Below, in pieces: positions 7,543 to 59,215 of a DNA stretch of 64,000 nucleotides. Position numbers and translations under genes: made by a program. The DNA is from Thermoflexia bacterium. Its GTDB lineage: Bacteria > Chloroflexota > Anaerolineae > B4-G1 > SLSP01. The notes below the pieces were generated by a model. That model was not told where the DNA came from and did not search any database. It saw nothing but the letters and a program-made list of their open reading frames with translations. Location: assembly GCA_011192175.1 (NCBI GenBank), contig DUEJ01000001.1:3090-67089 (forward strand), written 5' to 3'. Numbering within the stretch: the stretch's first letter is position 1; each line of letters starts with the position of its first letter.

Positions 7543-7698
7543 CTGGCTTGGGACGGTTTTCTGCGTAGGCCAAAGTCCCAATGCCAGGAACTGTGCCCGT
7601 GCAACACGATTGGGTTTGGCGGGGTGGCTCGGGCGGGAGACCAGCTACAGCTGACGTTCGCTCTCGTGAGAGGGCCCAGAAAACTTTGCCCGTGGTTT

Positions 7699-16235: not shown

Positions 16236-16288
16236 CTTCCTCGCTCCTCTCGCTTTCTCGCCTTCTCGCCCTCTCGCTTTCTCGCCTA
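16236..16288. repeat. CTCGC(T/C)TTCTCGCC tandem octamer/24-mer repeat array (copy 1 of 3)
   Basis: Array cctcgctcctctcgctttctcgccttctcgccctctcgctttctcgcc sits between the sensor-kinase stop and the REC-cyclase start. It is the same family as the arrays at 50619-50667 and 52583-52688. Confidence 0.8.
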
Positions 16289-21451: not shown

Positions 21452-21820
21452 TCAAGCGCGCGCTCCCAAACTCAATTCTGCCGGCTGGAACTGAGCCGGT
21501 ATAGTTGGTAATTCCGTAAAAACCGGCAATCGGGCCACAATATCCAGATACCACCACCACTGCGCGAAAGTGACGTTTTGATTATGGCGCCAACTAGCCA
21601 AGTCAGCCATGCGGTCAATAGATTCGTAAAACCGTTTAGCCTGACGGAAAAGATCTTTATCCGCTTTCAAAAGGCGTTGGCGTTGTGCCCCGGTCAGATG
21701 CGGCTCACCGACCTCGATCTCGCTCCGTCGCATCAACATGTGCAAATGTTCCATGCCGCTCACATCGGGGAACTCTACATCAACTTCATACGCAGTCAGC
21801 AGTTCTTCATAGTTTGTCAT
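21452..21820 (-). CDS. hypothetical small protein (122 aa)
   Basis: ORF with consistent codon usage. It overlaps its upstream partner by 14 bp. No family is recognised. Confidence 0.35.
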   Translation of the reverse strand: MTNYEELLTAYEVDVEFPDVSGMEHLHMLMRRSEIEVGEPHLTGAQRQRLLKADKDLFRQAKRFYESIDRMADLASWRHNQNVTFAQWWWYLDIVARLPVFTELPTIPAQFQPAELSLGARA

Positions 21821-22178
21821 ATTCTACCTCACTTAAAGATCCGAATTTTTCAAATCCAGGTTGTTTCAAATAGTCTGGAACGTCAATTACAAACGCGGTT
21901 TCTAGTACCCCTTCCAGGTTAAACATTACCAGCCACAGGCGATTTTGCACTGTAGCTACAACTACCATGTAAGGTGTGCGGTTGTACCAATAAAGATAGA
22001 CTTGCGCCGCTCCATCGTTCAACACCGTCAGAATTATTCGCTCATAGTCTTCAAGTGTAGCGTCATGGGACAAATGTCCTTGCCGTTTGCGCTTGTAGAG
22101 ATGGCGCGCTGCACTGTAAAGTTTCCAATGCACGGCTGATTGTGCTATCCGTATAGCTTGCGATATCCAAGTCGGCAT
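21807..22178 (-). CDS. hypothetical small protein (123 aa)
   Basis: Overlaps the downstream small ORF by 14 bp, suggesting a coupled pair. No family is recognised. Confidence 0.35.
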   Translation of the reverse strand: MPTWISQAIRIAQSAVHWKLYSAARHLYKRKRQGHLSHDATLEDYERIILTVLNDGAAQVYLYWYNRTPYMVVVATVQNRLWLVMFNLEGVLETAFVIDVPDYLKQPGFEKFGSLSEVEYDKL

Positions 22179-22261
22179 GTTTCCCTTTCCTATTCCCGGC
22201 TCAAGGCTCGGTCAGGAGACCGAGCCCAACATAATGCGTACTTGCCTACTTGCTCGCTTGC

Positions 22262-23047
22262 TTACTCCACATCAGACAAACCATATTTGTTGAACAGTCT
22301 CTGCCCAGCGTCTGAGGCAACATACGCCATGAACTTGCGGGCCAGTTCGGGAGATTCAGATGTGCTGAGCAGTCCCAGGACGAGTTTTTTCTTGACGGCG
22401 TATTCTGCGCTGATGGGCAAGGCGTCAACGTAGGGTGCGTTTTCGGGCCAGGTGGAAGTCGCGTACCAGTTGACGATCAGATCGGCCTCGCCATTTTTGA
22501 GTGCGTCCGTCAACTCTGTCGCATTTGCTGCCAGACTCTGGACGTTGCCCATCGCCTGATCCAAAATACCCATGTTGGCGAGTATCTTTTGCGTCTCTCT
22601 GCCCACACTCGCTGTATCTGGGTCAGCCAGGAACAGAACATAATCTTCATTAGTGAAGCTGGTGGAATCCGCTGTAATCCCTAGTGGATTGCCCTCGGCT
22701 ACTATCATCGCGGCCTTGTTATAGCCCACGAGGACCGTTTCGATGACCAGGTCTTGCGCAAGACAAGTCACGATGTAAGAGTCGTCCCCCGGCAGATATA
22801 GATCTCCGACCCGGTCGGTCTGAATCGTTTCCAACAAATTCCCCGAACCGCCGGCTTTAATAGTTATGGTGCAGTTTTCCTCTTTCTCAATGATAGTGGC
22901 GATCTCTTCCATTGGCTGCATCATCGTTACGCCGCAGTAGATGAGGAGTTCTCTTTTCTCGGCTGTGGCGGGTTGTTGATCGCAACCCGCTAGTAACGTG
23001 GCCGCGCTCATCAATAATACCACTACTAGAATTGTATACCGTTTCAT
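22262..23047 (-). CDS. ModA-like periplasmic molybdate/tungstate-binding lipoprotein
   Basis: Lipoprotein signal LLAGC. ModA-like PBP fold motifs (IKAGGSGNLLETI, LVIETVLVGYN). No cognate permease or ATPase is adjacent. Confidence 0.65.
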   Translation of the reverse strand: MKRYTILVVVLLMSAATLLAGCDQQPATAEKRELLIYCGVTMMQPMEEIATIIEKEENCTITIKAGGSGNLLETIQTDRVGDLYLPGDDSYIVTCLAQDLVIETVLVGYNKAAMIVAEGNPLGITADSTSFTNEDYVLFLADPDTASVGRETQKILANMGILDQAMGNVQSLAANATELTDALKNGEADLIVNWYATSTWPENAPYVDALPISAEYAVKKKLVLGLLSTSESPELARKFMAYVASDAGQRLFNKYGLSDVE

Positions 23048-23088
23048 CTTCAGCTCCTTAAATCTATAAGTTATTTCGCTTGCGCCCC

Positions 23089-23460
23089 TTAATCGTGCTG
23101 TTGAGTTAGCCGCTGGCAGAATGTGACCAGCGTGGGAATGGATACCGGTTTTTCCAGGTATAAATCCACCCCGATCTCCAAACAGCTCTCGTGATAACTG
23201 GCGTCAGCGGAGACCACGATGATTTTAGCGCCCGCTTGGTGCAGTTGAGGAGTTACTTGTTGTAGTAGGGGGATTGCGCGCTCGTGTCCTAAATGGATAT
23301 CGCAGAGAAAAAGAGCGAACGCTTCTCGTGCCAAGAGTTCTTGGGCCTCGGATATCGTGCTGACAACTGTGACCCGAAAGCCGAAGTTTCGCAACGCCTT
23401 GTAGTAGAGGCGTTGAATATCGGCTTCATCTTCGGCGATTAGAATTGCAGGAGGAACCAC
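23089..23460 (-). CDS. single-domain response regulator receiver
   Basis: ILIAEDEADI...FLCDIHLGHE receiver motifs. 123 aa. Confidence 0.7.
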   Translation of the reverse strand: MVPPAILIAEDEADIQRLYYKALRNFGFRVTVVSTISEAQELLAREAFALFLCDIHLGHERAIPLLQQVTPQLHQAGAKIIVVSADASYHESCLEIGVDLYLEKPVSIPTLVTFCQRLTQQHD

Positions 23461-23888
23461 TGAATAAATCCTCTCTCATTTGCGACTTATAGCTCTTCTG
23501 GAATTCGCGGGGTCGAGTTAAAATTAACCCCGACTTATCAAAGCAACTCTACCTTATAGCTAAAAAGTGTGATTGTCAAATGCCTACCTAAAATTTATAC
23601 ACTCTCAAAATAGAAGCGTTAATAGAGTTAGGTTGGATTCTAACCCTTTGTTTGGTTAAAGTCAAGTAAGAATTATTACAGAATAGTAACGGGTAAAGAA
23701 ATATCGGATTTGCATCTAGCGACTTTGTAGTTGCCCTACAGGCTTAGAAAATCCCCGCGCTACAGGCTGCATCCAGCTTGCAGCCTGTCTAGATGGTTGA
23801 CAAATTTTGGTAGTTGTGTATACTCATCGCTGCTAACGGAATGGGCAACCCCTTTGACCCGTCTAAGCTGCGTGTTATAATAGGCGTG

Positions 23889-23960
23889 CGCCGACGTAGC
23901 TCAACGGATGAGCTTCCGCCTTGTAAGCGGAGGGGTGTGGGTTCGATTCCCACCGTCGGC
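23889..23960 (+). tRNA. tRNA-Thr (anticodon TGT)
   Basis: Cloverleaf: acceptor gccgacg/cgtcggc, T-arm gggttcgattccc, anticodon loop cttgtaa. Confidence 0.85.
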
Positions 23961-23966
23961 TTTTGG

Positions 23967-24049
23967 GGGGCAGATACCCTAGTGGACAAAGGGGGCTGAC
24001 TGTAAATCAGCTGGCAACGCCTTCGGTGGTTCGAATCCGCCTCTGCCCA
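23967..24049 (+). tRNA. tRNA-Tyr (anticodon GTA), class II with a long variable arm
   Basis: Acceptor gggcaga/tctgccc, anticodon loop ctgtaaa, long variable arm, T-arm ggttcgaatcc. Confidence 0.85.
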
Positions 24050-24060
24050 TCTTTTTTTAT

Positions 24061-24133
24061 GCCCATGTAGCTCAGTTGGTAGAGCACATTCTTGGTAAGA
24101 ATGGGGTCCTCGGTTCAAATCCGAGCATGGGCT
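24061..24133 (+). tRNA. tRNA-Thr (anticodon GGT)
   Basis: Acceptor gcccatg/catgggc, D-arm tagctcagttggtagagc, anticodon loop ttggtaa, T-arm ggttcaaatcc. Confidence 0.85.
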
Positions 24134-24182
24134 TGGGGAATTTGGCTCCTTCAGGAAATCTACAGAGTATATAGAGGTATCA

Positions 24183-24352
24183 TGGCTAAAAAGAAAAAAT
24201 CTGCTAGGCCCAGCATTACACTCGCGTGTACGGTGTGCAAGGAACAGAACTATCTGACCGAGAAGAATCGCCATAATGATCGTGGTCGTTTGGAATTAAA
24301 ACGGTATTGCTCACGCTGCCGACAGCATACTTTGCACCGCGAAACTAAATAG
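24183..24352 (+). CDS. rpmG: 50S ribosomal protein L33
   Basis: MAKKKK...CTVCKEQNY...[21 protein letters not shown] with a Cys4 zinc ribbon, 56 aa. RBS agaggt. The longer ORF-track start at 24092 overlaps the tRNA. Confidence 0.85.
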
Positions 24353-24365
24353 TTAGTTAGATCGT

Positions 24366-24439
24366 AGGCGAGTAGCTCAATTAGGGAGAGCAACGGTCTC
24401 CAAAACCGTAGGTTACGGGTTCAATTCCTGTCTCGCCTG
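24366..24439 (+). tRNA. tRNA-Trp (anticodon CCA)
   Basis: Acceptor aggcgag/ctcgcct, anticodon loop ctccaaa, T-arm gggttcaattcc. Confidence 0.85.
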
Positions 24440-24515
24440 CCTATTCACTGAGACACCGTCAATTAAAGACGGTGTCTCTATACTGTAAGGGGATTTGAGC
24501 GCACGGAGGATAGAG

Positions 24516-24815
24516 ATGGCTGACCGAAAAAATAAACAGAAATCAGGAAATGCAATCATCCGTTATTTTCGGGAGACCCGCGTTGAGTTGCGTAAGGTGC
24601 GCTGGCCTAGTCGCAAAGAAGCTTGGCGGCTTACTAAAGTGGTGGGGCTAGTGACTCTGGGAATGGCTGTGCTATTAGGTGTCATGGATCTCTTCTTCGG
24701 ATGGATGCTGAGAGGCGTTATCTCTCAGAACGTACTCTTCATGGTGTTAGGGGCAATTGTAGCTGCGGCTTTGACCATCGCGACCATCATGGTTGGACAA
24801 GTAGACGAGGCTTGA
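24516..24815 (+). CDS. secE: preprotein translocase subunit SecE
   Basis: Motif RYFRETRVELRKVRWPSRKE is the SecE signature, followed by a TM helix. RBS ggagga precedes the ATG at 24516. Confidence 0.85.
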   Translation: MADRKNKQKSGNAIIRYFRETRVELRKVRWPSRKEAWRLTKVVGLVTLGMAVLLGVMDLFFGWMLRGVISQNVLFMVLGAIVAAALTIATIMVGQVDEA

Positions 24816-24822
24816 GCGAGTC

Positions 24823-25701
24823 ATGTTAGAAGAACGTTCTCTGGAAAAAGTAGTAGAAGTAAATACTGAGATGGACGAGCTGCGCACATCAAGTTTAGAT
24901 GTGCCTCTCTCTCCAGAGGAGCTGTTGAGCCGTTTTGAGATGGATACCGAGGTTGAGGAAGAACCAAGTGTAGGGATTGCTCCTCCGGAAGCCGCGCCGG
25001 AGAGTGCCGAGCCGGTGGTTATCGCTGCCGCGCCCATATTCGAGCCGGAACCGGAAGAAATCTCGCCGCCAGAGGAAGACCTATCCCCCTTAGAACTTCA
25101 AGAGCGTTTGCTCCAGGAAATACCGGCTGGTGATCTACTGCCTGACCCTTTCGCCGACGAAGTGCAGCCAGCTATTAAGCTGAAAGATTGGTTTGTGATA
25201 CATTGTTATTCCGGTTCGGAGCAGAAAGTGCAACACAACCTACAACAACGGGTCGAATCAATGGGGATGCAGGATAGCGTTTACCAGGTAGTTGTCCCTA
25301 CCGTTGAAGAAATCGAGATTAAAAATGGTGAACGACAGACGGTAGAGCGGTGCCTCTATCCAGGTTATATTATAGTCCAGATGATTTATACCGAAGATGC
25401 CTGGTACATGGTGCGCAACACACCGGGTGTTACCGGGTTTGTAGGAACGGGCCATAAGCCAGTTCCGTTACACCGCGAGCAGGTGAAATCAATCTTACAT
25501 CGTATGGAAGAAGAGTCTCCGCGGCTGCGGACTACGTTCACGATTAACGAGAAGGTGCGGATTATAGAAGGCCCCTTCGTTGATTTCATTGGGGCAGTGC
25601 AAGACGTTGACGAAGCGCGGGCGAAATTACATGTGTTGGTCTCCTTCTTTGGCCGTGAGACCCCGGTGGAATTAGATTTCTTACAAATTGAAAAAGCGTA
25701 A
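24823..25701 (+). CDS. nusG: transcription termination/antitermination factor NusG with a roughly 115-aa acidic, Pro-rich N-terminal extension
   Basis: The NGN domain begins at KDWFVIHCYSGSEQKV. The C-terminal KOW motif is EKVRIIEGPFVDFIGAV. Confidence 0.85.
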   Translation: MLEERSLEKVVEVNTEMDELRTSSLDVPLSPEELLSRFEMDTEVEEEPSVGIAPPEAAPESAEPVVIAAAPIFEPEPEEISPPEEDLSPLELQERLLQEIPAGDLLPDPFADEVQPAIKLKDWFVIHCYSGSEQKVQHNLQQRVESMGMQDSVYQVVVPTVEEIEIKNGERQTVERCLYPGYIIVQMIYTEDAWYMVRNTPGVTGFVGTGHKPVPLHREQVKSILHRMEEESPRLRTTFTINEKVRIIEGPFVDFIGAVQDVDEARAKLHVLVSFFGRETPVELDFLQIEKA

Positions 25702-48944: not shown

Positions 48945-49062
48945 GAAAGTCTAAGGTCAACTCTGAAAGCCCTCACCACGGGGGCACGGAGGGCACAGAG
49001 TTCTTTATTTTTTCTCCGTGTGTTCCATGTCTCCGTGGTGAAATGCTCGCTTACTCGCTCTC
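48945..49062. repeat. dispersed composite intergenic repeat family (copy E)
   Basis: Contains cacagagttctt...ctccgtgtgttccatgtctccgtggtgaaatg, the same terminal module as copies C, D and F. Confidence 0.6.
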
Positions 49063-49065
49063 TCG

Positions 49066-50529
49066 CTACCTCAATAACGGTACGATAAATCCAAATAAGC
49101 ACCACATATCCAGGACAAATAATCCCCCCAACAGAAGGGCGCCCCAGATGGCATTAAATTTAGCCGCAGTTAGGCCACTAAGAGCCGTGAACAACGCCGC
49201 ACTCCCCACTAACGCCAACGTCCAGAGCGGCAAGTCGCCGCGCAGCAATCCCAGCCCGCCGATTACCAAACCTGCTATCGCAAGCAGCGACGTGGCGGCA
49301 ATGGCTACCTGTTTATGGGTCAATTGCCGCAATCCCAGGGCCGCGATCAGAGCCAGCGCGGGCAGTGCAGGGAAGAGGTACCGTCCCTGGTGTTGCACAA
49401 AGGTTAGGTTGTACCAGAGCGGCAGCGCGAAGGTGATGAGCGTGGCTGTTCCCAATAGACAACCGGCATCTTGCTGAGTGCGAGAGATTCCCCGGTACAG
49501 CGCGAAAATCGCTTGCCACGCGGCCCCCCAAACCATCAGACCCGAGAGCAGGCCGGCTCCTAGGTAAATGCGCTGATCCAACACTACGCCCATCCAGCCG
49601 AACTGCCCCCAGAACGAGCGGAAGGTGGTGTGCAGGGCATTATGCAGGAAGAGTCCTAACCCGTCGCGCGCGATCCAGGCTGCGGTGCGCGGTTGTCCTA
49701 CCACCACGGCGTGGTGACGTTGCAGCCCTAGGATGTCGGGCCAACCATAGAGCAGTGAGTTGCGCGTCCACCAGAGCGCGCCTAAGAGCAAGCCAGGGAT
49801 GAAGAGCGCGGCGGCCTGGTGCAATGCCCAACTAAATGCAAAGCCGCCTCGCCGCCAGCGCAACACAATCACCAAGAGCGCCAGGGGGAGCGCCACGTAG
49901 CCCGTAGTTTTGGTGAGCAACAATGCTCCTAAGACCACCCCCAGGCTGAGCGGGGAGGTTTTGCCGCGCAGGTAACGCAAAGCCAGCCAGAGCCAGAGCG
50001 CCAGCAAGGCTTCCGTCAACGAGTCGTTGTTGACGCCGGCCATCATCGCGAGGTGCTGTGGCAAGCAGGCGACCAGACCGGCGGCCAGCCAACTCAAACC
50101 GGGGGACTGGGGCAAGACCTCTGCCGTTATCAAAGCGGTCATCACGACCACCACCGCGCCCAAAGTCAAGGAGAAAAGTCGCAAGGGGAGCAGGCGTCCC
50201 TCTCCCAGCCAGAAAATTGGTGTGGCTAAGAGATAGTAGAGCGGCGGTTGGTGATCCTCATAAGTCAGCGGCGCAATGGAGAGGTGTGGAGGGAACTGCT
50301 CACTGGTCAACCGTTCAATATAAATTTGGTCGTAATCTTGCGCGGTCATTTCAGGTAGCTGGTGCTGTTCGGCCAGCGTGCGGATGTAATTGTAGTGCGC
50401 CGGTTCGTCGGGCACTTGCCAGTGGGGAGTCTGCACCGCGTAGAGCGTGCCGGCGATGAAGTAAGCGAACAGGATGAGCAATAGCGGCCAATAACCACGT
50501 AATTGAGCAGTCGGGTAGTTTTCTCTCAT
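49066..50529 (-). CDS. GT39/GT83-type (PMT/ArnT-like) membrane glycosyltransferase
   Basis: About 12 TM helices. N-terminal loop with the DEPAHY motif. Overall ArnT/PMT_2-like architecture. Confidence 0.7.
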   Translation of the reverse strand: MRENYPTAQLRGYWPLLLILFAYFIAGTLYAVQTPHWQVPDEPAHYNYIRTLAEQHQLPEMTAQDYDQIYIERLTSEQFPPHLSIAPLTYEDHQPPLYYLLATPIFWLGEGRLLPLRLFSLTLGAVVVVMTALITAEVLPQSPGLSWLAAGLVACLPQHLAMMAGVNNDSLTEALLALWLWLALRYLRGKTSPLSLGVVLGALLLTKTTGYVALPLALLVIVLRWRRGGFAFSWALHQAAALFIPGLLLGALWWTRNSLLYGWPDILGLQRHHAVVVGQPRTAAWIARDGLGLFLHNALHTTFRSFWGQFGWMGVVLDQRIYLGAGLLSGLMVWGAAWQAIFALYRGISRTQQDAGCLLGTATLITFALPLWYNLTFVQHQGRYLFPALPALALIAALGLRQLTHKQVAIAATSLLAIAGLVIGGLGLLRGDLPLWTLALVGSAALFTALSGLTAAKFNAIWGALLLGGLFVLDMWCLFGFIVPLLR

Positions 50530-50618
50530 CTGGCACTCGCCTTGTTAGTCAGTTAGTCCAGTAGTCTGGTAGTCGTTAGTTCGGTAGTCTCAGTAACGCG
50601 ACTTTTGCGATGATGTGT

Positions 50619-50667
50619 TCGCTCCCTCGTTCATTCGCTTTCTCGCTCACTCGCTTTCTCGCTTCAC
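50619..50667. repeat. CTCGC-type tandem repeat array (copy 2 of 3), at the left border of the ATPase/TOPRIM islet
   Basis: gctccctcgttcattcgctttctcgctcactcgctttctcgcttcac. Confidence 0.75.
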
Positions 50668-51396
50668 TGTTCCTGCGGTATAAACTTTTCCAGCTCTCGG
50701 TACCACTGCCTAAAAAGAGGACATTTGCCAATGACCACAGGTACCAGCATCTCTTGCAGTAGTCGGGGTGTATGAACAGCCTTGGAATAATGCACGTTTG
50801 CTTCATCCAATGCCGCTTCCATAATCAGTGCGGAAAGTTTTTCCTCACAAGCGTCTTTTTTCTCATCTAAAGTGCTAAAATTTTCTGGTTCAGCAAAAGA
50901 TACGTTATGTTGGCTGGCTAAACAATGACGCATAGCCCCGTGATGCGCACGAAAGTCTAAATCTTTGGCAAAAGTATTACTCCAGTCTGCGATCAACCAG
51001 GCTTCAATCTCAGGAGCCGCGAAACCTATTACCATCCGGTCGCTCTGCATATCAGGGAACTCGCCAAGCACGGCGTTAATGGTGTCCCTAAACAGCTTCT
51101 CACGTTCTTCCGCTACGTGACAGTCCAAATCGTCCATAACCAGAATGAGATCATAATTCTCACCACGATTTAAGGCCGCCCGTAATTGTCTGACAATACG
51201 ATTGGCTAACTCTCCGCCTGTGCCCCCCCCATAACTTTAGGGGCCCATTAGCACCTGGTCTGGCCCCAGGTTTCTGGTAGTAGGGAGTTTTCCTCTCAAA
51301 TTGCGCCTGCGCGAACTGTTTTCTCAAAAATGGCAGGAACCCCTTTACTTCCGAGGGGCCGCCTCCGGCAAAGACCCAAGTCTTTACCACGGCCAA
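50664..51396 (-). pseudogene. TOPRIM-like partner protein (DUF4276-like by memory) of the adjacent ATPase, disrupted by a +1/-1 frameshift in a G8/C8 homopolymer
   Basis: Two ORFs (51160-51396 and 50664-51137) join into one 243-aa reading frame if the C8 run at 51223-51230 is read as C7. The joined protein reads ...KLWGGTGGELANRIVRQL...DLILVMDDLDCH.... It has a TOPRIM-like Glu (GGGPSE) and a DxD (DDLD). It overlaps the ATPase stop by 13 bp. Confidence 0.6.
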
Positions 51397-52565
51397 CCGC
51401 CCACGCTGGGATCACCAACGCGATAGAGGTCTCCTAATTTCCACCCTTCTTGCAACCAGCTCGCTACGCTTTCTTGAGTCAAACGGTTGATGGCGAAGTG
51501 CCCGGTATCTCGTTCAGGTGCGCTGAATACCAGTACGTTTTCCACTTCATCCGTAAAATGATCTAATAAATCGGGGCTGTGGGTACTGATGATAATTTGA
51601 GTTTTAAGAGAGGCGTTTTTGATCCAATGGGCAAGTACTTCTAGCCAAGCCACGTGTATACCCATTTCGGGTTCCTCTATCACCAGGAGAGCGGGCAACT
51701 GCGGCGAATGTAGGATCGTAGCCCAACACAACATCCGCACCAGGCCATCAGACATCTCCCTCAGATAAAAGGGTTCTGGGGTATCCGCAATATACCATTG
51801 CACAGCCAGTGATAGTTGCCCCGCAAAAACCGTTCTTATCCGGCGGGTAAGGGGCCAAATGCCTTGCATGGCCTGGTTGATACGCTCTTCAAATTCAAGA
51901 CTATCCTCCATAAGATTGTGGAGGACCAACGTCAAGTTCTCGCCAGAAGCAGTAAGGTATCTATCCCCTTGTCCCACTTTGGGTTCTGCCTCTCGGATGC
52001 GTTTTAGATTCATGCTGTTGGCGTTGTAGAAATGCCAGTGAGAAAAAGAACCCAGCAAATTATACAGCGGAATAGGTCCAGCTGCTAGAATTGCCCCTTC
52101 AATGGTCTCCTGCTCATGCTGGTTTTGTCTAAAAAGCATTTTATCATTGAATCCCTCACCTTTCCTTCTTTCGACAGCAACATCTTCTCGGTAAATGACC
52201 GGGAAACGGTTTCCCGGTACAAACAGTAACGTAAGTCGGAGACGGCTTTGAACCTCTTCGGGCGGTAAAGGACTTAAATAGAATTCTAAATTGACCTGCC
52301 CCGGTCGTTTCACGGTTTTATCTAATATGTCAGAGCCGCCTAGCTGCATAATGGCTTTGTCGAAGCTCGAGACCTCATCCACAGAAGGTAAGCTGGCATT
52401 TTCCAGAAAACGAAAGATATTCACCAAGTTACTCTTGCCTGAACTGTTGGGACCAATTAAGATATTCAAGCTGCCAAAACTGACATCTAGCGGACCTAGG
52501 TTCTTATAGTTTTCCGCTACCAGCCTGTTAATATGATACGTGGCTTTGAAACCGCTTTCTCTCAT
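51384..52565 (-). CDS. soluble ABC-like AAA ATPase (AAA_21/AAA_15 type; OLD/PARIS-AriA-like)
   Basis: Walker A GPNSSGKSN. ABC-signature-like MSDGLVRM. Walker B/D-loop LLVIEEPEMGIH. H-loop ISTHSP. No TM domains. Local GC is lower than the surrounding genome. Confidence 0.75.
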   Translation of the reverse strand: MRESGFKATYHINRLVAENYKNLGPLDVSFGSLNILIGPNSSGKSNLVNIFRFLENASLPSVDEVSSFDKAIMQLGGSDILDKTVKRPGQVNLEFYLSPLPPEEVQSRLRLTLLFVPGNRFPVIYREDVAVERRKGEGFNDKMLFRQNQHEQETIEGAILAAGPIPLYNLLGSFSHWHFYNANSMNLKRIREAEPKVGQGDRYLTASGENLTLVLHNLMEDSLEFEERINQAMQGIWPLTRRIRTVFAGQLSLAVQWYIADTPEPFYLREMSDGLVRMLCWATILHSPQLPALLVIEEPEMGIHVAWLEVLAHWIKNASLKTQIIISTHSPDLLDHFTDEVENVLVFSAPERDTGHFAINRLTQESVASWLQEGWKLGDLYRVGDPSVGGWPW

Positions 52566-52582
52566 ATCTGTTCCTCTCCCTT

Positions 52583-52688
52583 CCTCGCTTTCTCGCTCCC
52601 TCGCCTTCTCGCCTTCTCGCTCACTCGCCTTCTCGCTTTCTCGCTCACTCGCCTTCTCGCTTTCTCGCTCACTCGCTTTCTCGCTTCT
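52583..52688. repeat. CTCGC-type tandem repeat array (copy 3 of 3; about 4 units of a 24-bp period built from 8-mers), at the right border of the islet
   Basis: cctcgctttctcgctccctcgccttctcgccttctcgctcactcgccttctcgctttctcgctcactcgccttctcgctttctcgctcactcgctttctcgcttc. Confidence 0.85.
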
Positions 52689-53328
52689 GGGGAGTGTGCT
52701 TGGATATCTGAATCAAGGGTGGTTTTTCGTAGAAAATGGGTAGAAACCGTTCTTCTCGCTTAGAGAGACGTTTGATGTTAGGCCGTAGCGCCCAGAGCGT
52801 CAACAACATAGTTGGGAGGCCAAATCCCAGTGCGTAAGGCCATCCCCCATGCCAGTAACTCAACCCTGGCAGAGAGAGCGCGATAAGGATAGAAGCCACG
52901 GAAGCATGTCCTACCAATCCAACAACCGCAATCGCCGGGATTAACAATAGCGGCAAGTTCCCTCCCCACATCGCACTGGCAATCCCCAGGCTGGTGATCG
53001 TGCCCGCGCCACCGGTAAAGCCCAGATAGAGTGAGTAATTATGCCCCACTATGCCTAGCGCCCCCGTGAGGGCCACTGCCCAGGGGCTAAGTCCCAGTGC
53101 TTTGGCTATCCAGATGCCGGCGGCCCCCTTGAAGCCATCACAGATAGCTGTTAAGAGGGCCGCTAGTGAACCACTGGTGCGCCAGACGTTGGTGCCGCCG
53201 GTGCGCCCGCTCCCATGTTGGCGTACGTCAATATGTTTGAGCACCTTGGCCCAAAGAATACCCGGCGGAAGCGAGCCTAATAAGTAAGCGGCGGCCCAGG
53301 CGATAAATAATTTTACAGCTGTTCCCAT
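52669..53328 (-). CDS. plsY: glycerol-3-phosphate acyltransferase PlsY
   Basis: HGSGRTGGTNVWR motif and a polytopic profile. The extreme C-terminal tail is encoded by the tandem-repeat array, so the true stop is uncertain. Confidence 0.8.
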   Translation of the reverse strand: MGTAVKLFIAWAAAYLLGSLPPGILWAKVLKHIDVRQHGSGRTGGTNVWRTSGSLAALLTAICDGFKGAAGIWIAKALGLSPWAVALTGALGIVGHNYSLYLGFTGGAGTITSLGIASAMWGGNLPLLLIPAIAVVGLVGHASVASILIALSLPGLSYWHGGWPYALGFGLPTMLLTLWALRPNIKRLSKREERFLPIFYEKPPLIQISKHTPQKRESE

Positions 53329-53330
53329 TT

Positions 53331-54083
53331 TTACTCCTCATTTTGTCCACAGTGTGGACAGTTAGCAGTTCTGGTAACTTGTATCTTCTCAAAAGAGTGG
53401 TGCAATCCATCCCAGAGCAGTAGCTGATCCACCAATGGCGTCCCTATCCCCAGCAACACTTTGAGCGCCTCCAGCGCTTGCAACGTGCCGATTACCCCGG
53501 CTGTGGCGCCGATAATTCCAAGTTCGGCCGGTGATTGCTGGCTGCCCGGTTCCGGCAGCTCGGGGAAGATGCACCGGCGGCAAGCGTGACCGGGCAGCAC
53601 TACGCTTAATTGCCCCTCAAATCGTTGCACCCCCGCCCATACCAGGGGCACTCTGGCCCGCACACAAAGTTCGTTGATTAGAGCCTTGCTGGCTAGATTG
53701 TCGGTAGCTTCCACCACTAGATCATAATCTGCAATTAGGGCGGGGCCATTCGCACGCGAGACACGCATGATATGCGGGATGATGGTAATTTCTGGATTGA
53801 ATGCCCGGAGGCGGCGCGCCGCTTGCTCAACCTTGTTTCGGCCTATCCCCGCTGGCGTGTAGAGAATCTGGCGATTCAAGTTGGTAGAAGAGAGCAAATC
53901 GTCATCAGCAATACCCAGCGTGCCCACCCCGGCGGCGGCCAGATAGAAGAGCGCGGGGGAACCCAGCCCTCCGGCTCCAATCACCAAGACACGCGCTGTC
54001 TGCAACCGGGCCTGTCCAGCTACACCAATTTGGGGAATCGCTATCTGTCGCGCGTAACGCCGATTTACTTGAACTTCGTTCAT
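53331..54083 (-). CDS. ThiF/MoeB-family E1-like adenylyltransferase
   Basis: Rossmann motif VLVIGAGGLGSP, a catalytic Asp region and the C-terminal CxxC...CPHCG zinc motif. Confidence 0.8.
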   Translation of the reverse strand: MNEVQVNRRYARQIAIPQIGVAGQARLQTARVLVIGAGGLGSPALFYLAAAGVGTLGIADDDLLSSTNLNRQILYTPAGIGRNKVEQAARRLRAFNPEITIIPHIMRVSRANGPALIADYDLVVEATDNLASKALINELCVRARVPLVWAGVQRFEGQLSVVLPGHACRRCIFPELPEPGSQQSPAELGIIGATAGVIGTLQALEALKVLLGIGTPLVDQLLLWDGLHHSFEKIQVTRTANCPHCGQNEE

Positions 54084-57451: not shown

Positions 57452-57524
57452 TGGGCCTACCGGGATTTGAACCTGGAACCGACCGGTTATGAGCCGGTTG
57501 CTCTAACCGTTGAGCTATAGGCCC
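57452..57524 (-). tRNA. tRNA-Met (anticodon CAT; could be initiator, elongator or Ile2)
   Basis: Reverse complement gggcctatagctcaacggttagagcaaccggctcataaccggtcggttccaggttcaaatcccggtaggccca. Loop ctcataa. Confidence 0.8.
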
Positions 57525-57529
57525 TGACA

Positions 57530-57600
57530 AGCGGGCGACGGGAATCGAACCCGTATCAATGGCTTGGAAGGCCAAGGCGTTACCATTACACGACGCCCGC
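57530..57600 (-). tRNA. tRNA-Gly (anticodon TCC)
   Basis: Reverse complement gcgggcgtcgtgtaatggtaacgccttggccttccaagccattgatacgggttcgattcccgtcgcccgct. Loop cttccaa. It resembles the E. coli glyT type. Confidence 0.75.
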
Positions 57601-57646: not shown

Positions 57647-59215
57647 TTGGCAAAACCTCAAAATTGTGGCATACTCTCACGAGTGAATATCTTACGGATT
57701 ACGCCAAAGGAAGATCGTTATACGGTACGCGAGGCATTACGCCATACGCCCGCCAAGTTGGTTCTCATTCAGCTGCCCTGGGAAGTAGAAACGGGCTGGG
57801 ATTCGTTACTTGATTACGAAGTGCTGTTAAAAACCTGCCAAGAAAAACAACTGAGCTCGGCCTGGGTAGTGGCGGATTTTACCAAACGCGCTCTTCCCCG
57901 TGAGGCAGGATTCACCGTCTTTGTCAGCGTGGCGCAGGCCGAGACTTATCTGGCCGCACACGGTACTTTCCCCGTTCCCACACCACCAGCGCGCCCAGCG
58001 CGGCCGCAACGTCCCCCCTGGGCTGAGAAGCTAGAGCCGCGGGTGTTGCGCGGCCCGCGGCCGCGCTGGTTGCTCCCCATACAGCTTGGGATATTGCTGA
58101 TCGCGTTAGGCGCCATAGGAATGGTGGCTTTCCTGACGCTGCCCTCCGCGCAAATTAGCTTGGTGCCGCAACAAGCTACTTATGCCCTGATTGTGCCTAT
58201 CTCCGTCTCGGCAGAGATGGACCCCGGCACCGTGGATTTTCAACGCAATCTTATTCCGGGCCGGCGCGTGGGTGATGAGTTCGAGAGCTACGCCGAAGTG
58301 GGCACTACCGGACGGGGAGACACCGTCTCAGGAAGATCCACGGGGCAAGTCTTCTTCACCAATCAGTTGGGACAGAACTATCAAGTTCCCGCCGGGACGA
58401 TAGTCCGCACCTCCGCCGGCTCTTATCCGGTACGCTTCAAGACCACGGACCCCATTGACGTGCCGCCTTTTGGTCAAGCAGCGGTTTACGTCGAGGCGTT
58501 GGAGCAAGGCCCACGCGGGAATGTGGGAACCTACCAGATCAACTTTGTGGAAGGCGTGGTCGGCTTTGCCCTCAAAGTGACCAATCCCGATCCTATCACC
58601 GGCGCGGAGAGCCAGAAGACAGCGACTGTCTCGCAAGCGGATCAGGGCCGCGTCTGGGGCATCGCCGCCGAGCAGGTGCTGGCCGAGGCCAATAATGGGC
58701 TGCAAGCTGCGGCTTATCTGCAACCGGGCGAGTTTATCCCGCACCAGGACCTGATCATCCAGGCGACGCCCAAAGAAACCTACACCCACCTAGTGGGCGA
58801 GCAAACCGATGTATTAGGAGTGTCACTGCGCCTGCTAGTAACTGGATTGGCCGTCAACGCTACCGACGCCCAAAAAATCGCCTACCGCCGGCTCTCCACC
58901 CAACAACCCCCCGGCTATCGACTAACCGATACCCGCTTTGAGATCGGAGAATCCGCGGAAGAGGATGTGGGCGCTGGACGCTTCACCTTCTACGTTACCG
59001 CTCACGGCTATGCCACTGCGGAGATCAACCAGGATGTAGTTTGGGAAGCCATACAAGGGCAACGCGCCACAGACGCCCGCGCCACCTTGAGTGCATCTTT
59101 ACCGCTAGCTCAAGAACCGGAGATTGTTATTTCCCCGGAGTGGTTCCCTTTTATCCCTCGCCTCCTCATCCGCACCGCAATCACCATCAAGCCGGGTAAA
59201 TGGAGTGGCAAGTAA
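57647..59215 (+). CDS. hypothetical membrane-anchored protein with a large extracytoplasmic domain
   Basis: 522 aa with one TM segment (LLPIQLGILLIALGAIGMVAFL) after a roughly 150-aa cytoplasmic N-terminus. The Pro-rich linker is PTPPARPARPQRPP. No family is recognised. Confidence 0.45.
   Translation: MAKPQNCGILSRVNILRITPKEDRYTVREALRHTPAKLVLIQLPWEVETGWDSLLDYEVLLKTCQEKQLSSAWVVADFTKRALPREAGFTVFVSVAQAETYLAAHGTFPVPTPPARPARPQRPPWAEKLEPRVLRGPRPRWLLPIQLGILLIALGAIGMVAFLTLPSAQISLVPQQATYALIVPISVSAEMDPGTVDFQRNLIPGRRVGDEFESYAEVGTTGRGDTVSGRSTGQVFFTNQLGQNYQVPAGTIVRTSAGSYPVRFKTTDPIDVPPFGQAAVYVEALEQGPRGNVGTYQINFVEGVVGFALKVTNPDPITGAESQKTATVSQADQGRVWGIAAEQVLAEANNGLQAAAYLQPGEFIPHQDLIIQATPKETYTHLVGEQTDVLGVSLRLLVTGLAVNATDAQKIAYRRLSTQQPPGYRLTDTRFEIGESAEEDVGAGRFTFYVTAHGYATAEINQDVVWEAIQGQRATDARATLSASLPLAQEPEIVISPEWFPFIPRLLIRTAITIKPGKWSGK

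Follow-up and report, generated by a model that had tools for sequence, protein, structure and literature searches.

The window analysed here is a 64,000-nucleotide stretch of contig DUEJ01000001.1 from the Thermoflexia bacterium assembly GCA_011192175.1, and our analysis emphasized a two-gene locus lying in it between plsY and a membrane glycosyltransferase gene. On balance, we consider this locus to be probably a stand-alone HEC-01-type operon, i.e., an accessory insertion of ~2.0 kb that would encode an ATPase-gated TOPRIM-type defence system, the effector of which is split in this genome. The two genes are co-oriented and overlapping; the first encodes an ABC ATPase and the second a DUF4276 partner, which is frameshifted in the window and intact in a nearly identical contig (L001). 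Since the best PADLOC matches are HEC-01A for the ATPase and HEC-01B for the partner, the pair is, as judged from these profile models, of the HEC-01 type (a PADLOC candidate), and the locus is a fresh member of an already catalogued, barely tested candidate anti-phage family. The initial annotation, made from the letters of the sequence, had proposed an OLD/PARIS/AbiL-like module: the combination of an ABC ATPase with TOPRIM logic was retained through HEC-01, while membership in PARIS, AbiL or OLD was not. Likewise, its two-gene islet holds for the ATPase gene, which is intact, but not for the partner as a single open reading frame (ORF).

The 393-residue ATPase matched the Pfam families AAA_21 (1.9e-28) and AAA_15 (2.4e-14), with weak SMC_N/RecF profile matches at its N-terminus. 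In PADLOC, its best match was the HEC-01A model PDLC04175 (1.4e-51, residues 11-382 of 393) and five more HEC-01A models matched below 1e-30, with weaker matches to AriA (4.7e-28), mad3 (1.3e-18), AbiLi (5e-15), NsnB (7e-15) and GajA (1e-12). The Walker A, Walker B, signature and H-loop motifs noticed in the initial annotation were all recovered, in an alignment with 26 homologues, at columns that are invariant or nearly so, i.e., G38..G43-K44-S45 for Walker A, S272-D273-G274 for the signature, V295-I296-E297-E298 followed by P299 and E300 for Walker B, and H329 followed by S330 and P331 for the H-loop. The AlphaFold2 model of the protein (pLDDT 86.3) had as best Foldseek folds the PtuA-type ATPases (retron I-A/Ec78/Eco7, Septu) and SMC heads (E 5e-15 to 1e-11), with a template-modelling score of about 0.5 for the Septu and retron type I-A PtuA matches (E 5e-15 to 1e-12). 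By sequence, the closest solved chains were AriA, PtuA and GajA, the match being confined to the C-terminal 50-70 residues of the ATPase (AriA, 3.9e-6 over the C-terminal 70 residues).

The partner belongs to the Pfam family DUF4276 (PF14103), which the initial annotation had offered as a guess: its C-terminal fragment (157-aa ORF) scored 40.8 bits (3.8e-10) and the frame-corrected protein 47.0 bits, for a gathering threshold of 30.2 bits, and all 57 members of its clade matched the same family. Its PADLOC matches were to HEC-01B models only (PDLC04188; 1.9e-7 with the C-terminal fragment, 6.4e-7 after frame correction). Three motifs stand out among the homologues. DDLDC is invariant (57/57) directly after predicted strand 3 (82-88), and a P-E-x-E-(A/S)-W motif follows strand 4 (first Glu in 57/57, second in 56/57), its version in the window being PEIEAW in the C-terminal fragment; Glu14, at the start of helix 1, is present in 56/56 sequences among the 57 homologues. 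The AlphaFold2 model of P0123, the nearest full-length homologue (57% identical to the L001 partner; pLDDT 91.9), displays a beta-alpha-beta core, with strands at 2-8, 29-33, 82-88 and 113-119 and helices at 12-25, 59-75 and 94-108, before a C-terminal half that is helical. Compared with the PDB by Foldseek, it gave topoisomerase I as top match with a non-significant E of 0.012, and the partner sequence showed no link to solved structures even at E <= 10. The structural comparisons of the family would be compatible with TOPRIM, short of proving it, and the motifs appear to speak for TOPRIM more clearly than the structures do. DUF4276 has been assigned to the Toprim superfamily, and Mad4 and some NsnC proteins of Menshen have this domain (PMC12065111). 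In the OLD nuclease BpOLD, the metal A ligands are strand-end E400 and D455, those serving metal B are E404 and E508, and single alanine substitutions are tolerated in vitro (PMC6755086). By analogy, we infer that Glu14 may occupy an E404-like position, DDLD that of the DxD motif and PExE an E508-like position. Note that an hhalign comparison of the clade profile with two canonical DUF4276 proteins aligned only the C-terminal two-thirds and did not settle the N-terminal motif.

The accessory status of the pair was given by its orthologous site. A genome scan with PlsY returned one relative, an Anaerolineae metagenome-assembled genome contig (L007) with a PlsY 93% identical, whose flanks align to the window on both sides at 88-89% identity. 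The ~2.0-kb segment holding the pair is without counterpart there: L007 has 43 bp instead (its positions 2265-2307), plsY is directly followed by the glycosyltransferase gene, and both breakpoints fall inside tandem-repeat arrays that border the islet. Since the pair is absent from this orthologous plsY site, it is accessory at the locus, and the universal conservation that the initial annotation had set as its refuting outcome was not found. Most simply, an array that already existed received the pair by insertion or exchange; a loss by deletion in the L007 lineage is possible. The composition of the islet agrees with a foreign origin. Indeed, as first noticed from the sequence, the pair is less GC-rich than its surroundings, with a GC content of 48.4% for the islet versus 54.2% for the window (standard deviation 2.9; 3% of 2-kb windows as low) and a GC content at third codon positions of 0.46-0.50 versus 0.59-0.71 in neighbouring genes, and its tetranucleotide distance is in the top 7% of windows.

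Beyond this lineage, the next-closest homologues are only 53-57% identical and come from Chloroflexota, and further ones were found in many cyanobacteria, a Desulfococcaceae and a Beggiatoa-like organism. A partner-clade profile search retained 302 cluster representatives of 1.84 billion (E <= 0.001), which makes the clade a small one, and the scan of JGI metagenomes for close relatives gave matches of 31-35% identity only. In all homologous loci examined, the ATPase gene adjoins the partner gene, in most cases overlapping it by 7 nt, and these homologous pairs occupy unrelated housekeeping contexts, often beside HepT/MNT, ParE, HicB, PIN or UPF0175/DUF3368 genes.

In the window, the partner gene is interrupted. 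The 78-aa ORF that overlaps the ATPase end is limited to the N-terminal strand and the WVFAGGGPSE motif, to which the conserved Glu14 belongs, and the frame holding DDLDC, PEIEAW and the remainder is open from 51233 to 50664; the TOPRIM-like Glu and DxD proposed in the initial annotation are therefore both present, but in different reading frames. Deleting one G of a run of eight (G8) fuses the two frames into one protein, which aligns to positions 4-192 of 192 of the DUF4276 profile (4.8e-12). The L001 contig (GCA_029935835.1), 99.6% identical over 14 kb and unchanged in gene order, has a run of seven (G7) and the partner as a single intact 241-aa ORF; in the pairwise alignment the extra G is the sole indel in the pair, and the two partner proteins differ by one residue. 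According to a homopolymer census, G8 is the longest G/C homopolymer of the 64-kb window. The deposited annotation has a 177-aa 'DUF4276 family protein [Thermoflexia bacterium]' (P0121) that is exactly the second-frame fragment; as annotated (window 50664-51194), P0121 has an apparent ATT start and bears no frameshift flag. Homology places the partner start at a GTG (51390) whose overlap with the ATPase stop is 7 nt (GTGGTAA), as also observed in L001, L010, L011 and L013. The 13-bp overlap first described belongs to the longest ORF and had to be replaced by this shorter one. A repeated decay of the partner was considered from the 133-aa DUF4276 protein of L014 and rejected, as it is a gene-calling difference: the DNA is identical to that of L013 over the whole pair.

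Because the partner gene is split by the additional G, the effector is predicted from the sequence to be non-functional here, unless this G was introduced by faulty assembly or reflects a slippage state that is reversible. A decaying remnant, in which the frameshift truly inactivated the effector (e.g., a costly nuclease effector) and the ATPase is drifting, is a serious possibility, although we would not expect it to prevail. It agrees with the separation of Glu14 from DDLD and with the substitutions relative to L001, 4/5 of which are non-synonymous in the islet (3/4 in the ATPase gene, which lies at 8001-9182 in L001, and 1/1 in the partner) versus 5/17 in six neighbouring genes. These counts are small, below what significance needs, and just hint at a relaxed constraint on the islet; moreover, the ATPase ORF is complete with all its motifs kept, and the tiny divergence from L001 implies that the event would be very recent. 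Alternatively, assembly or consensus building may have gone wrong at this long homopolymer, and the real organism would have an intact functional pair organised as in L001, which we hold to be possible but rather doubtful. Homopolymers are classic error sites, and the independent L001 assembly, with its G7 run, its intact ORF and a partner that otherwise differs by a single residue, speaks for such an error; against this, G8 stands in the deposited assembly, the annotation of which includes P0121, and an 8-mer is rarely miscalled by short-read assemblies. It is improbable, finally, that the G7/G8 tract acts as a slipped-strand on/off switch (phase variation) of a potentially toxic effector: two near-identical genomes do differ at exactly this tract, the longest of its kind in 64 kb, but only two alleles were seen, and the tract is lineage-specific, the homologues encoding YGKTGKS without a G run.

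The stand-alone HEC-01-type operon that we favour has to be positioned relative to known systems. By its original definition, HEC-01 pairs an ABC ATPase with a TOPRIM-like protein, embedded in Hma (helicase-methylase-ATPase) systems; HEC-01B is there said to resemble TOPRIM and to have a metal site of the OLD kind (Payne et al., bioRxiv 10.1101/2024.01.29.577857). As an example of this archetype, an Aeromonas plasmid pair (ATPase ~27% identical) lies between an SNF2 helicase and a methyltransferase, with the DUF4276 gene adjoining. The pair studied here shares with HEC-01 the two-protein architecture, the gene order and the ABC ATPase fold, in addition to the best hidden Markov models for both proteins; in contrast, it stands alone among housekeeping genes, and its partner is a weak HEC-01B match, is frameshifted and has no acidic residue at the end of strand 1. 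PARIS also combines a split ABC ATPase with a TOPRIM-superfamily partner, and AriA is the closest solved chain by sequence. However, the ATPase is ~70 residues shorter (393 versus 464 in the AriA chain), and the partner is a DUF4276 protein whereas AriB is a DUF4435 TOPRIM transfer RNA (tRNA) nuclease (PMC11464382); neither the partner nor any of the 57 clade members gave a DUF4435/AriB match, and the pair is therefore not PARIS. In OLD nucleases and GajA, ATPase and TOPRIM are fused (PMC6755086), whereas here, as in every homologous locus examined, they are separate polypeptides whose two genes overlap, so that the pair is no OLD or GajA protein; the partner clade also has no equivalent of the strand-end Glu (E400), and, unlike in Gabija, no UvrD/GajB helicase gene is nearby. 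Septu and retron type I-A PtuA-PtuB, the best structural matches, resemble the pair as an ABC ATPase oligomer controlling a small nuclease, but their partner is an HNH nuclease, and no HNH, reverse transcriptase or msr/msd was found at the locus. An AAA_21-type ATPase with a DUF4276 domain is also found in Menshen (NsnB/NsnC-DUF4276; PMC12065111) and in MADS, an eight-gene methylation-associated system (Mad3 ATPase and Mad4 DUF4276). The adjoining genes (plsY, ThiF, glycosyltransferase and thioesterase) include no methyltransferase, NsnA or other mad/Menshen genes, and the NCBIfam MAD3 model NF047739 gave the ATPase 77.9 bits for a cut-off of 420; with the score below this cut-off and no methyltransferase nearby, the pair is therefore not MADS. 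As for AbiL, the AbiLi match of the ATPase is far below that of HEC-01A, and the AbiLii models of PADLOC did not match the partner.

By analogy with PARIS, Septu/retron PtuAB and OLD nucleases, the operon could work as follows. The SMC-head-like ABC ATPase is translationally coupled to its DUF4276 (TOPRIM-superfamily) partner, the two having probably been inserted between plsY and the membrane glycosyltransferase gene inside the (GCGAGNNN)n array already present behind the plsY stop. The ATPase oligomer would hold or gate the partner until a phage- or mobile-element-derived trigger and the ATP cycle license its putative metal-dependent nuclease centre (Glu14, DDLD and PExE), and the licensed partner would then cut nucleic acid, possibly DNA or tRNA, and halt the infection. 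From the assembly as it stands, a single-chain effector would not be produced.

Several observations weigh against this reading. The first HEC-01 test gave no protection (bioRxiv 10.1101/2024.01.29.577857), although in a later study one representative of HEC-01 did protect E. coli B from one or more of T4, T5 and T7 (bioRxiv 10.1101/2024.09.26.614923). The identity to the plasmid-borne archetype is only about 27% for the ATPase, the HEC-01B matches of the partner are weak (~1e-7), and the neighbouring genes include no defence function, integrase or transposase that would flag a defence island. In addition, the effector gene is disrupted in this genome, with the small non-synonymous excess mentioned above. 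Of the 57 clade sequences, 49 have Ala and 7 have Ser at the strand-1-end position of the partner, and none of 37 more distant relatives drawn from an exhaustive profile search has an acidic residue there, whereas the five reference DUF4276 proteins (P0241-P0245) have FEGGGxSAE with both glutamates, one of them at the strand end; the invariant Glu14 of the clade sits 6 residues past this position. On the analogy with BpOLD, the centre of the clade would be modified yet probably still able to bind metal. A role of the clade in defence is putative, and likely by comparison with related systems.

The pair could also serve to maintain the chromosome or DNA, as a RecF/SMC-like ATPase joined by a TOPRIM protein, or be a selfish addiction module; to either we attach little probability. 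Such a role is consistent with the weak SMC_N/RecF signal of the ATPase N-terminus, with the surroundings of the pair in other genomes, where it is found amid housekeeping genes and adjacent to toxin-antitoxin genes, and with the scant documentation of HEC-01 defence. In contrast, its absence from the close relative L007, its patchy spread across phyla and its foreign composition argue against such a role, and its closest characterised relatives are all defence ATPases.

The repeat arrays on both sides of the islet are made of 8-nt units (CTCGC on the plus strand and GCGAG on the minus strand), a pattern with 18 matches in the window for 0.03 expected. The upstream array (~14 units with a 24-nt super-period, Tandem Repeats Finder (TRF) score 186) overlaps the last plsY codons and the stop, and ends ~10 nt before the ribosome-binding site and ATG of the ATPase gene; the downstream one (~6 units) begins 1 nt past the partner stop codon, and the first 30 nt of the two are identical. 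Further arrays of the GCGAGNNN family were found at 16236-16287, after the stop of a 1700-aa ORF, and at 49043-49066, after the glycosyltransferase stop, the latter being absent in L007. All four share the sense strand of the gene upstream of them, starting 0-2 nt after or across its stop codon. It should be noticed that the four are all behind minus-strand genes, with none behind a plus-strand gene. In the empty site of L007, array units are located on both sides of the 43-bp filler (six before and two after), and because the same arrays flank this empty site, they are a landing place and not the termini of an island. The arrays seen in the initial annotation are thus real, but they are dispersed and border an empty site as well, so that they are neither islet-specific nor, taken alone, a sign of horizontal insertion. 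GCGAG arrays were found beside none of the homologous pairs in 13 loci outside the lineage (L002-L006 and L008-L015), and the arrays as part of the mobile unit were ruled out on this ground.

The filler itself is no detectable remnant of the islet (best local score 11 for a shuffle mean of 10.4). It holds a bulged hairpin, GGCCGGTC-TCCT-GACCGAGCC, and matches in reverse orientation an intergenic 30-mer of the window (7622-7652) at 26/30 positions (score 22, shuffle maximum 18), which points to a second small dispersed element. An ACTAAC-type tandem repeat (period 8/23) in the glycosyltransferase leader (window 50544-50590) is kept in L007 with one extra copy. At the other end of the islet, the ATPase N-terminus (52533-52565) has ~9 additional residues (MRESGFKAT..) compared with the nearest homologues (MSIKQL..), and its first codons, ATGAGAGAAAGCGG, resemble degenerate array units, so that the array may have supplied the start codon. 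A likeness between the ATPase and glycosyltransferase start regions (CAGAT..ATGAGAGAAA) was unconvincing, with a score of 11 versus a maximum of 10 for 36 other gene starts. A bolder idea is that the (GCGAGNNN)n stop-codon arrays are integrase-free landing pads that capture or exchange promoterless cassettes, here the HEC-01-type pair, by recombination. A slot filled by the 2-kb pair here and by a hairpin element of 43 bp in a relative, the shared first 30 nt and arrays that come and go between relatives are all compatible with it, and we nevertheless give it very little credence.

The coordinates of the locus are collected in Table 1. The genes form a co-directional run on the minus strand (ThiF, plsY, the ATPase gene, two short ORFs, glycosyltransferase, thioesterase and gyrB; ORF scan and Pfam). 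No tRNA, integrase or transposase is found at the islet borders, the closest tRNAs being at 57.4 kb. Consensus scans for a promoter or terminator of the islet's own remained at chance level and Rfam gave no match; transcription of the pair by read-through from plsY is plausible. Elsewhere in the window, a 522-aa ORF (57647-59215), whose L001 counterpart matches Pfam Baseplate_J, stands alone beside a prfA-like gene and the genes of tRNA-Met and tRNA-Gly (57452-57600), and may be what is left of a phage or contractile system. Another low-GC stretch (about 48%), at 21800-25700, holds a tRNA cluster (Thr, Tyr, Thr, Trp) at 23890-24441.

Table 1. Features of the plsY-glycosyltransferase locus (positions in the 64,000-nt window).
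Feature	Position	Strand	Evidence
ThiF	53331-54083	-	ORF scan, Pfam
plsY	52669-53328	-	ORF scan, Pfam
Upstream (GCGAGNNN)n array	52575-52686	-	TRF, pattern count, sequence
ABC/SMC-head-type ATPase, 393 aa, HEC-01A-like, intact	51384-52565	-	Pfam, PADLOC, motifs, AlphaFold2
Short ORF, 78 aa, overlapping the ATPase end	51160-51396	-	ORF list
Partner, N-terminal fragment (GTG start 51390, TGA stop 51160)	51160-51390	-	ORF list, alignment to L001 protein and 24 homologues
G8 homopolymer (C8 on the plus strand), +1 frameshift site	51223-51230	-	Alignment to L001, homopolymer census
Partner, C-terminal part in second frame (TGA stop 50664-50666)	50664-51222	-	Translation, Pfam, PADLOC
Short ORF, 157 aa, DUF4276-scoring	50664-51137	-	ORF scan
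Downstream (GCGAGNNN)n array	50618-50668	-	TRF, regex scan, alignment
PMT_2/DUF2142-type membrane glycosyltransferase	49066-50529	-	ORF scan, Pfam
Presence/absence segment, ~2.0 kb	50630-52636	.	blastn of window versus L007, junction alignment

Altogether, only two points of the locus are unusual, namely the arrays at stop codons and the loss, throughout the clade, of the acidic residue at the strand end. The former are a genome feature perhaps worth a genome-wide look, and the latter, by which the clade departs from other DUF4276 proteins, bears on how TOPRIM-like effectors bind metal. The frameshift cautions against scoring this locus as a functional defence system in automated surveys, in which it would be counted as intact or partial with the break unnoticed. 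The locus offers a clean presence/absence case of a stand-alone HEC-01-type ATPase and DUF4276 pair as mobile accessory cargo in Chloroflexota, and this example supports, without proving, a conflict-system role for the HEC-01 family, the experimental record of which is thin.

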